Virus record (IMG/VR): IMGVR_UViG_2654587685_000017
Location: 1-18,349 of that record
Reading direction: 5' to 3' (one strand)
DNA length: 18,349 bases
From: a virus
Taxonomy: Duplodnaviria > Heunggongvirae > Uroviricota > Caudoviricetes
In this document: one piece after another, positions 6,001 through 9,000 of the stretch
Position numbering within the stretch: the stretch's first letter is position 1
Layout: every line of letters starts with the position of its first letter
Made by a program: the position numbers

Positions 6001-9000
6001 CCGGACGGCAGAGCTCGCATGCTTTTTGGTTCCGGCTCCACCAGTATTCTGCCGTTATGGAATGCTGACATTGATTCACGGCCTGGCTTAACGATAACCA
6101 GACCGAGTTCCGGTACCAGAACAGGTCGAAGTAATACCCGCACATTACCTCCAGATCCGTTGCTGGAATGTGCGGGACGGACGCGGTGGCCGTTCGGAGT
6201 AAGGGAGCCTGACGGAGATTATCCAGTGACGGTAGTCGAGGCTAAGGGCTTTTTTAACCTCGCATCCGCGCCTGCGGTAACACTGAATCAGCCATTCAGC
6301 CTGTTCTTCGGTGCAGGGGTCGTGCTGATACCAGTCAGATTTGAATGCGTGAAAACACCGTCCGCGCCTGCTGGCAAAGACGGCAGAATCATCAGAATTG
6401 TATAATTTGGTATCGTGCGCCATCGGTTGTCTCTGCTGGCGCAGCAGGTGCCAGTTGTTCAGGCTGGCGTGCGAATTGTAAACCAGAATGCCAGGAAAAA
6501 ACAAAACCCGCCGAAGCGGGTTAAGTGCGGGTGCGTTGAGGATGCCTGATTCATCAGAGGTGGCGAGGGATTTCTCCCCCGCCTGGTCTCTTACTCCTCA
6601 GGTTCGTAAGCTGTGAAGACAGCGACCTCCGTCTGGCCGGTTCGGATTCGTACCTCGCAGAGGTCTTTCCTCGTTACCAGTGCCGTCACTATGACGGTTA
6701 AACAGATGACGATCAGGGCGATTAACATCGCCTTTTGCTGCTTCATAGCCTGCTTCTCCTTGCCTTTCGGCACGTAAGAGGCTAACCTACATGTGTCTAG
6801 CATGAAATTGACCTCAGATTAATGTTAGGCGTCTTGCAGGACGCGTAATGTTAACTGGGGCTTTTCTCTGTCTGCCTTTTGGTGTTCATGCCTGAGGCAG
6901 ATAGCCTCAAGCACCCGCAGCAATTCTACTTAACTCTCGCTTTACAGCAAACCGTTTTTACCCGATATGGGAATTCCCATATCGTAATGAATTCAGTTCC
7001 CTAGTCGATCCATCAAAAACACAACCAGGCAGTAAACGCCCACAACAGCAACAACAGCCAGCGCACCTTCCATTGCCAGTGAGATATCATCCGACATATT
7101 CCCTCCTTTGGTGTTAATCCCGGCGAACGTTTTTACCCCCACCGACAAATAACATATACTAAAAAAGCGATAGCCATAGCAACGCCTGTAATTGCAAATG
7201 CTTCAGGCCAGTTCATTGGCGCACCTCCTGCGGCGGTTCTGGTAGCGGCATCCAGTCGGTTACATTGCGGCTCTGTGTTTCGAAAAATTCATCACCATCA
7301 CGGACTACATCAAAAAACTCACCGTCTCGATATTGCGCATAAAGAACGAATGCGCCATCACATAAAATAATTACGTGCTGACCGTCATCCGGCATTCGCT
7401 CACTACAGCTTATCCAATCATCCAGAGTTACCGGATAGTTGGTTGACGTTTCCGAGATTTCCCGAAAATTATTGGTTGACGAACCCTTTTTTTCCCGAAA
7501 GTTTCCAGCCTGAAGCATGGCGGCGCTGTCTGGCGGGGCAGCATATAGCGGCACGTATATTTCCGGTTCCTTATCAGCACCGGGTTGCTCTTCCAGTGAG
7601 AATGTCTTTCCGGTAAATCGATTCATATAAAGCACGGGCTCTGCTTCCAGCGAAGCCTGAGCAACAAGGGCCAGTGCTAAATCCAACTCAATTGCCTCGA
7701 GAGAATTTTTGAATGCTGTCTGTTTTACTGCAAATTTCATCGCCTTTACATTTTCACTAACATGACTGATTAACTGCTCTTTTGTAAAAGTGGTCATCTC
7801 ATTCTCCTTTGATGCGAATGCCAGCGACAATTGAAGCCTGATAGCTAATTCACTCACAGTACCGCCTCCTGAAAATTGCCCTGATAGAACGCCAGTACAC
7901 GCAGCATAACTTCACTCTTCCGGCACTCGCCACAGATTATGTTCTGTTGTCTGTCGTAGCGGCGTATTTCTCCGTCTGGTAACTTTCGAATCAATGTCTG
8001 GTCGGTTGCTTTCTCCGCAGCCTTACGCCATACGCGATACACCTGTTCTGATGTAAAAACACCGTATTTACCGGGCATGTATAAATCGCCACAAGCCAGT
8101 ACATCCACAAGGCAACGTCTGACTGAATGCCAGCCTGCTCCCGTCGCTCTCTCCAGTTGTGATATCGTCATGCGTTCATTTTTGCGTACCAGCCCGATAA
8201 TTCGGGCCTTCAGTTCTTCACGCTGTTCGTGTGTAAAAGGTTTCGCCATAAGCGCCTCCGGCTATCACTTTTCCGATACAACACGGCGGGAAGAATCAGT
8301 AATCTGTCGAACAATATCCCGGTGCTTGTTCAGCTCCCGCAGCGCGGCGCAGACTCGCTCCCACTTCTGAACATCACTTTTCGCCCTGCGCAGCGCCAGG
8401 TTTGCCCTGCGCAGGGACGGAAAAATCAGCTCATCTGCTTGCGTTTCGGTAAACGATGGCAACGGCTGCACAATGTCCGCCACAGTTTCTGTTTTAATTT
8501 CTTCCTGTGTTGCGGCTTCCCGGACTGGTAACGCAGCACCTGCTGGCTGAGGAAAGGCCTTACCATCATTTTTCGTTACCGGCGCGGCTTTCGGATCTGC
8601 TGGTAAATTCCCCCCCGACATGCAGTAACGAAATTTACCGTTCTGATTAACGCGTACCAGCCGCCCCGTTGCGGTTACCACCGCCAGCGTGGAAGCAACC
8701 TTGCGAGTACTGACGCCGAACTTACCCGCCAGTTCCTCACACGTTTTAGCACCATCCTGACCGATAAACTCAACCATCATGTCTGCGGTAACTTTTGGAG
8801 CGACCTCTTCGGTTACCACATCCGGCGCTTCAGGTTGTAGTGCCTGCCCTTCGGTTACCCCGGCTTCACCTTCGACAGCCAGAAACCAGGTGTGACCCGT
8901 TTTATCAACAACGCCATTTTTTTTGAGTTCCCACAGTTCGTTAAGAACTTCTTCACGGCTGATATCAAGCCGCGCCGCCAGTTCAACAGAATTGGCTTTT

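Follow-up and report, generated by a model that had tools for sequence, protein, structure and literature searches.

The 18,349-nucleotide stretch of tailed-phage DNA (Caudoviricetes) catalogued as positions 1 to 18,349 of IMG/VR record IMGVR_UViG_2654587685_000017, hereafter the window, encodes two tandem small hydrophobic open reading frames (ORFs), ORF1 and ORF2, just upstream of a hok toxin gene. Here, we show that ORF1 and ORF2 are coding sequences under frame-specific purifying selection; ORF1 belongs to a family of microproteins, found in phages, prophages and plasmids, that is effectively undescribed and has no curated family. On balance, we think it probable that both ORFs are genuine phage accessory genes whose products are single-pass inner-membrane peptides, likely modulators or exclusion-type factors that act by binding a partner protein. 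A preliminary description of the window had noted the two ORFs and their Shine-Dalgarno (SD) sequences from the DNA alone, and we confirm both with the same boundaries and lengths; both reading frames also proved to be conserved in related prophages, a point on which that description had let its proposal depend.

ORF1, ORF2, the upstream gene for a DUF551-domain protein and hok all lie on the minus strand (Table 1; all coordinates are positions in the window unless otherwise stated). The ATG of ORF1 shares the sequence ATGA with the DUF551 stop codon (TGA, 7215-7213), and its ribosome-binding site is embedded in the final DUF551 codons (PQEVRQ-stop). Translational coupling of the two genes had been claimed from the ATGA overlap; the overlap stands as claimed, and coupling itself is what the arrangement suggests. 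Each peptide contains one segment of transmembrane (TM) length, with best 19-residue Kyte-Doolittle means of 2.45 for ORF1 and 2.70 for ORF2 against a usual TM threshold of about 1.6, in agreement with the single helix per peptide predicted earlier.

ORF1 relatives share a motif that we define here as M-x-W-P-E/D-A-F ... G11 ... C-R-W-G within a peptide of 22-27 residues, and the window copy has the motif, the length, the start overlapping an upstream stop and the preceding SD that mark the family. By tblastn, relatives are found in 99 phage records (52-70% identity among the full-length matches listed), including 933W, VT2-Sakai, BP-4795 and Min27 as well as the virulent vequintavirus Av-05 and the P1-like SJ46, with weaker matches in Klebsiella prophages. 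Matches by tblastn extend to 181 plasmid records from Escherichia, Salmonella and Klebsiella, mostly of about 80-130 kb and non-mobilizable in 174 of 181 cases; in IMG/VR, relatives are encoded on at least 508 contigs. A degenerate DNA pattern for ORF1 proved too loose when run against species-representative genomes, with 50 of its 52 matches due to chance in unrelated, mostly GC-rich genomes; its genuine matches were in E. coli and Shigella only. The K-12 proteins YpdK and YpdJ were considered as relatives and rejected, YpdJ (in CPS-53, downstream of yfdS and yfdT) being unrelated.

At every locus inspected, an SD precedes ORF1, the start codon overlaps the stop of the gene before it (as ATGA or TAATG), and the frame stays open for 22-27 codons except in the copies of POCJ13 and phiSTEC1589 described below. 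The preceding genes include those for DUF551 proteins, Ea22-like proteins, the coiled-coil protein L0139 of 933W and others, and a purine-rich, SD-like element persists before ORF1 behind these differing genes. Since they are mutually unrelated, the ORF1 unit appears to be a small cassette that grafts an SD onto the C-terminus of the preceding gene. What lies downstream varies: 35 of 80 sampled loci have the hok promoter there, and the others have hairpin terminators of several kinds or other genes. Inspected loci all leave ORF1 unannotated and RefSeq skips it; a few GenBank submissions label it "hypothetical protein" or "bacteriophage protein". A search with a concatenate of five ORF1 variants retrieved mainly frameshift fusions, and ORF1 is therefore rarely called as a gene; its 27 codons are too few for standard annotation, which misses it.

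Two further observations concern the genes in front of ORF1. The 3' end of the DUF551 gene (PLPEPPQEV-stop, with GGAGG) would serve as a general coupling junction for the gene that follows. In addition, TLDAATRTAAGG appears at the N-terminus of annotated L0139 in 933W (locus L011) and at that of the computed longest ORF for the SJ46 gene upstream of ORF1 (locus L014); since it is an out-of-frame translation of the DUF551 3' end, both starts look over-extended.

Selection on ORF1 is visible at two depths of divergence. Seven diverged phage copies give a ratio of nonsynonymous to synonymous polymorphism (pN/pS) of 0.31 in frame, with pS at 0.53 and thus near saturation, as compared to 0.84 and 1.44 in the other frames, and 40 unique sequences give 0.24 in frame versus 0.93 and 1.91. 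In a second IMG/VR sample of 80 loci, which spans several upstream junctions and many downstream contexts, the identical peptide MTWPEAFTTVGIAMAVALVVYSICRWG is encoded at 77 loci by 24 nucleotide haplotypes, and two further loci differ by a single V-to-I change. The differences among haplotypes fall at 15 third-position sites, one synonymous first-position site and one site in the stop codon. A single length variant was seen, an in-frame 6-nt deletion. P4, A6, F7 and G11 never vary across the family alignment, and W3 and W26 hardly do.

ORF2 is more narrowly distributed. Of 5,426 complete E. coli genomes, 674 carry its segment, with 1,469 occurrences in total at 90-100% identity. A search of 5.8 billion proteins with a 51-residue extended ORF2 retrieved E. 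coli relatives only, in 29 clusters; the exact ORF2 sequence is present in the protein collection on 997 contigs. A tblastn search of the phage record collection, run with the BLAST low-complexity filter on, gave no match. The window ORF2 is identical to RefSeq WP_001278454.1, annotated as a hypothetical protein by the Prokaryotic Genome Annotation Pipeline (PGAP) in a 100%-identical locus of the E. coli fS25a chromosome (L001), and differs only by V16I from ECs_5710 (YP_009502606.1) of prophage Sp6 in E. coli O157:H7 Sakai; in both places ORF2 is annotated and ORF1 is not. Among assessable ORF2-seeded IMG/VR loci, ORF1 of one subclade (...AIAFLVYVICRWG) lies directly upstream in at least 103 of 106, and hok lies downstream in 99 of 106.

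ORF2 lies within an indel. A 175-bp segment (7127..6953) that contains ORF2, a palindrome and one copy of the 11-bp direct repeat GGGTAAAAACG is missing from 933W-type loci, and in the loci that lack ORF2 (933W, 606R7 and phiSTEC1589) a single repeat copy remains and the ORF1 stop abuts the hok promoter. We considered ORF2 as a diverged duplicate of ORF1 and rejected this origin, the DNA similarity being matched by 435 of 1000 shuffles and the protein similarity being marginal (87 of 2000). Within its range, 16 haplotypes of ORF2 give a pN/pS of 0.23 in frame, lower than in any of the other five frames; third positions account for 10 of 16 non-singleton polymorphic sites (P = 0.016), and common polymorphisms are synonymous. 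The start codon varies between ATG and GTG only, and one variant on record carries a 9-nt in-frame duplication. What is new for ORF2 is its corrected start codon (see below), the indel structure and its dependence on ORF1; its annotation and its status as a ribosome-profiled ORF in Sakai were already known.

Translation of the Sakai copy of ORF2 has been reported. Hücker et al. 2017 (PMC5597208) describe a translated ORF, XECs145, at Sakai 1550761-1550922 in that paper's coordinates and with the sequence MCYLSVGVKTFAGIHTKGGN-MSDDISLAMEGALAVIAVVGVYCLVVFLMDRLGN; it corresponds to Sakai ORF2 called from a non-ATG start 20 codons upstream, inside ORF1. In lysogeny broth (LB), XECs145 showed 79.1 reads per kilobase per million (RPKM) in RNA and 346.1 RPKM in ribosome profiling (RIBOseq), a ribosome coverage value (RCV) of 4.35 and a coverage of 0.99; in the brain heart infusion (BHI) control these values were 121.3, 150.1, 1.14 and 0.84, and under cold and osmotic stress in BHI they were 73.3, 1.1, 0.01 and 0.37 (PMC5597208). 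The same study predicted an inner-membrane location, assigned the machine-learning class "real" and reported no SD (PMC5597208), as would be expected because an SD would not be found at the published upstream start. That start is probably wrong, since the conserved start is the ATG preceded by AAGGAGG. The 0.99 coverage extends over the spacer and the final 24 nt of ORF1, which is compatible with translation of ORF1 and does not prove it. Of the ribosome footprints that the preliminary description had proposed to look for, published data thus supply those on Sakai ORF2 only. The EDL933 translatome supplements and the Enterobacteriaceae microproteome supplements contain no match to either ORF, and a literature search by accession number found no paper mentioning them.

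Several observations weigh against taking both ORFs as established, functional genes. For ORF2, degraded variants circulate in the form of frameshifts, truncations and ORF1-ORF2 fusions, and its selection signal rests on few events because nucleotide divergence is only about 10%. The module of ORF1 and ORF2 is present in 1-5 copies per genome, so the Sakai footprints may be multi-mapped; a subpopulation of spontaneously induced cells could also be the source of the Sakai ORF2 signal, and at 27 residues ORF1 falls under the 30-residue cut-off of the Sakai study. ORF1 itself is interrupted by an amber TAG at codon 3 in POCJ13 (L002, about 2549-2632) and phiSTEC1589 (L005, about 1541-1624); past this codon the frame stays open and conserved. 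The amber codon of POCJ13 arises by CCTGG to CCTAG, which we take to be the change expected from deamination of 5-methylcytosine at a Dcm site. Finally, the O157:H7 variant MIWPEAFAITGVAIAIDFLVYVICRWG (Sakai L228, 3344-3427; L010) carries A17D, which places an aspartate in the middle of the predicted helix, and this variant is the commonest one among sampled ORF2-linked loci, at 33 of 106.

Rare fusions join ORF1 and ORF2 in a 74-residue frame (P0034, P0038 and P0039) through an apparent 1-nt loss in a run of five G at 7136-7140, by the ORF1 stop, and could be either real mutations or homopolymer sequencing errors. An AlphaFold2 model of a natural fusion has two helices (predicted local distance difference test score 71, predicted template modelling score 0.41) and is uninformative on helix packing.

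Based on these data, we propose that ORF1 and ORF2 are accessory genes that close the replication/nin-like block in a lambdoid prophage, behind ydaS/T-like and replication genes. ORF1 would be a cassette, mobile between contexts, that consists of an SD, an ATG overlapping the preceding stop and 27 codons; because the cassette brings its SD and sets its start on the upstream stop, ORF1 translation is probably coupled to the upstream accessory gene. ORF2 would be a younger add-on with its own SD, flanked by an ORF1 of one subclade and by the hok promoter. Both peptides may insert N-out/C-in, given their acidic N-terminus and the one arginine behind the helix; this reading draws on the positive-inside rule. 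We suggest that the TM helix, together with the N-terminal WPEAF motif in the case of ORF1, binds another inner-membrane protein, so that the peptides would act as modulators or exclusion-type factors during infection or induction, membrane-breaking toxicity being less likely. We favor a specific protein-protein interaction in the membrane because ORF1 is strictly conserved, WPEAF included, and is present in virulent phages, large plasmids and prophages alike, a pattern that is ill suited to generic membrane damage or prophage addiction. A modulator or exclusion role is offered here as an inference only, drawn from the design of the peptides. There is a smaller chance that ORF1 represents an overlooked family of phage effectors hitting one host inner-membrane machine, with a block to superinfection or a change in transport or division as the outcome, and that ORF2 is its partner in a two-peptide complex; if so, the rare fusions would hint at physical partnership.

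Known small membrane proteins offer parallels in design. MgrB, AcrZ, MgtS, PmrR, KdpF and CydX are small inner-membrane regulators of a class that binds larger membrane proteins. With about 27-50 residues and a single TM helix they are the closest class, in design only: they have no sequence similarity to ORF1 or ORF2, which unlike them are phage-encoded, and the one NCBIfam small_MgtU match fell on Hok and not on either ORF. T4 Imm, T4 Sp, HK97 gp15 and P22 SieA are phage membrane proteins of about 80-190 residues that act in superinfection exclusion or host takeover. Like ORF1 and ORF2 they are accessory, non-structural inner-membrane proteins, but they are much larger and show no homology in PHROGs or PADLOC. 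The Pf3 coat protein, a virion protein, is an N-out/C-in membrane peptide and resembles the two ORFs in their predicted insertion topology only. They share the charge pattern from which that topology is predicted: a brief acidic tail at the N-terminus, then a single hydrophobic helix with a basic residue behind it. XECs145/ECs_5710, by contrast, does not differ in kind: its ORF2 is of the same family, at near-identity, within the same DUF551-ORF1-ORF2-hok arrangement. No model in Pfam, NCBIfam, PHROGs or PADLOC matches ORF1 or ORF2 above threshold; the best profile below it, phrog_38566 against ORF1 (E = 0.0065), was reached by only 3 of 11 family members.

The proximity of hok raises the alternative that ORF1 and ORF2 are additional membrane toxins, type I-like or Kil-like, acting with Hok or in its manner, and the preliminary description had listed further toxins first among its suggestions. 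Both peptides are small, hydrophobic and single-TM, the window copy and 35 of the 80 sampled ORF1 loci stand directly upstream of hok, the operon is expected to be repressed in a lysogen, and the opposite strand has two promoter-like sites overlapping ORF1 and ORF2. We nevertheless regard this alternative as rather unlikely. No Hok/Gef, toxin, defence or PHROG model matches either peptide: a Pfam scan assigned ORF2 to no family and ORF1 a sub-threshold POT-family match only, in the same run that placed the neighboring hok product in Hok/Gef (PF01848) at 1.2e-23. ORF1 and ORF2 share with Hok/Gef proteins a small size, a single TM helix, carriage by phages or plasmids and, here, adjacency, but they are about half as long, lack a sequence match, and have strong, exposed SDs from which translation would be direct or coupled, whereas type I toxin mRNAs are translationally silenced. 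The ORF list holds no mok-type leader ORF overlapping either of them, and the Rfam sok model matches 6741-6916 only, which lies downstream of both.

The opposite-strand sites are unlikely to rescue a type I arrangement. They are weak sigma-70-like sequences on the plus strand, at 7073-7100 (antisense to ORF2) and 7132-7160 (antisense to ORF1); three such sites were found against 1.9 expected from shuffles, no terminator stands behind them, and the common A8V variant alters the -35 of one. They are probably meaningless, and antisense-RNA control of ORF2 is unsupported. In healthy cultures during growth, Sakai ORF2 ranks with the more heavily translated of the novel ORFs; this sets it apart from Hok and speaks against an acute toxin. 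The N-terminal motif and the identical ORF1 peptide across haplotypes fit specific binding better than generic membrane damage. The adjacency to hok is positional: neither peptide is a Hok family member or a part of hok/sok, the hok promoter follows ORF1 in fewer than half of the sampled loci, and ORF1 occurs in virulent phages and plasmids too. The toxin role suggested earlier thus loses ground.

Of similar probability, and a fair alternative, is that ORF2 is a young, lineage-restricted proto-gene, translated by way of an acquired SD and with little or no function, leaving ORF1 as the sole established gene. Its restriction to E. coli (29 clusters among 5.8 billion proteins), the empty tblastn search under the low-complexity filter, its position in an indel between direct repeats and its frameshifted, truncated and fused variants all fit such a history. 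Against it stand the low in-frame pN/pS and third-position excess, the retained start codon, the presence of ORF2 at 1,469 places in 674 genomes and its high ribosome occupancy in Sakai.

A third alternative, that the act of translating ORF1 matters rather than its peptide, by holding ribosomes to the operon end or by controlling a terminator, the hok promoter or the ORF2 ribosome-binding site, is in our judgment very improbable. No further ORF usually intervenes between ORF1 and a terminator hairpin or the hok promoter, and in a predicted fold the ORF2 SD pairs with codons 16-19 of ORF1, an arrangement that would also couple ORF2 to ORF1; one haplotype with two changes preserves this helix, and we keep the pairing only as an idea. 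Covariation for it is weak and mixed, however: common O157 haplotypes break the SD-sequestering helix, two of its pairs have 7 and 11 non-pairing haplotypes, and the A17D base change also abolishes a predicted pair beside the ORF2 SD. The strong amino-acid constraint, with one peptide kept by 24 haplotypes, P4, A6, F7 and G11 invariant and W3 almost so, speaks for the peptide. Least credible of all is that the ORFs are chance frames, conserved if at all at the level of DNA or RNA, or serve as holins or lysis proteins: short hydrophobic ORFs arise easily and ORF2 itself contains a 25-residue alternative frame, but selection is frame-specific with other frames at about 1 or more, a synonymous-site pattern that largely refutes chance, ribosome footprints cover Sakai ORF2, and annotation of the 14.4-kb locus L001 shows no lysis gene (where the neighbors are DUF551, hok, DUF968, RusA and Q-like genes), which also makes the holin-like role raised in the preliminary description unlikely.

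Table 1. Features of the ORF1-ORF2 locus and other elements in the window.
Feature	Position	Strand	Details	Basis
ORF1	7216..7133	-	27 aa, MNWPEAFAITGVAMAIAFLVYVICRWG; ATG 7216-7214, stop TAA 7135-7133	
ORF1 SD, AGGAGG	7229-7224	-	spacer 7 nt to ATG	sequence
ORF2	7097..6993	-	34 aa, MSDDISLAMEGALAVVAVVGVYCLVVFLMDRLGN; ATG 7097-7095, stop TGA 6995-6993	
ORF2 SD, AAGGAGG	7108-7102	-	spacer 4 nt (slightly short)	sequence
DUF551-domain gene	7213..7797	-	PGAP start; longest ORF from 7857	Pfam PF04448, 3.2e-20
Direct repeat, copy 1	7128..7138	-	GGGTAAAAACG, 11 bp; spans ORF1 stop	alignment with 933W, 606R7, phiSTEC1589
Direct repeat, copy 2	6953..6963	-	GGGTAAAAACG	same alignment
Palindrome	6963..6984	neutral	perfect, 22 bp, CGATATGGGAATTCCCATATCG; central EcoRI site	
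hok promoter	6950..6923	-	-35 TTGCTG 6950-6945, 16-nt spacer, -10 TAGAAT 6928-6923	by eye
hok mRNA leader and sok antisense region	6741..6916	-	no overlap with ORF1 or ORF2	Rfam RF01794, 113.5 bits, E = 1.4e-25
hokD-type toxin gene	6591..6746	-	PGAP name hokD	Pfam HOK_GEF, 1.2e-23
mok-like ORF	6803..6591	-	overlaps hokD	ORF list
STnc100 sRNA	1351-1540	-		Rfam, 132 bits
DicF antisense RNA	13763-13814	+		Rfam, 77 bits
tRNA genes (two)	2240-2313, 2418-2490	-		Rfam

The 22-bp palindrome that separates ORF2 from hok accompanies ORF2 in 101 of 106 ORF2-seeded IMG/VR loci by a strict pattern, and at one locus (L007) the ORF1-ORF2-palindrome unit is kept although hok has been replaced. It stands some 58 bp ahead of the predicted start of hok transcription, and as RNA it would fold into a hairpin of -22.9 kcal/mol (z = -4.95). 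We considered it as an intrinsic terminator and rejected this, the hairpin being strong but followed by no U tract; it could instead be an RNA 3' stabilizer, an RNA processing site or a protein-binding site. The hok promoter was identified by eye, and a simple consensus promoter scan did not list it; transcription is predicted to start near 6916, in agreement with the position at which the Rfam match begins.

The DUF551 gene is annotated by PGAP as WP_024218878.1 in locus L001, which belongs to a lambdoid prophage. Gene order there is dicB, ydfC, relBE, a repressor/cro-like pair, a YdaT-family gene, replication genes, DUF1627, DUF977, DUF551, the unannotated ORF1, ORF2, hokD, a 92-residue ORF, DUF968, RusA, DUF1133 (Q-like), a methyltransferase and tRNAs. 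STnc100, DicF and the tRNA genes are typical cargo of Qin/Sp-like lambdoid prophages. PGAP marks two genes as pseudogenes with internal stops, one for a replication ATP-binding protein (DnaC/P-like; L001 4500-5240, window about 9801-9061) and one of the TerB family (L001 12238-12666, window about 2063-1635), and the prophage is thus probably defective.

Phage small membrane proteins are a recognized class, and the two ORFs open no long-standing question; what they add is a testable microprotein family with a defined motif, boundaries and coupling junction, a corrected start for XECs145, and a hok neighborhood that is probably not a toxin cluster. ORF1 is carried by Stx-converting phages such as 933W and by many prophages of pathogenic E. 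coli, and its constraint across very different phage types, as read from sequence, would point to a specific role in the membrane.

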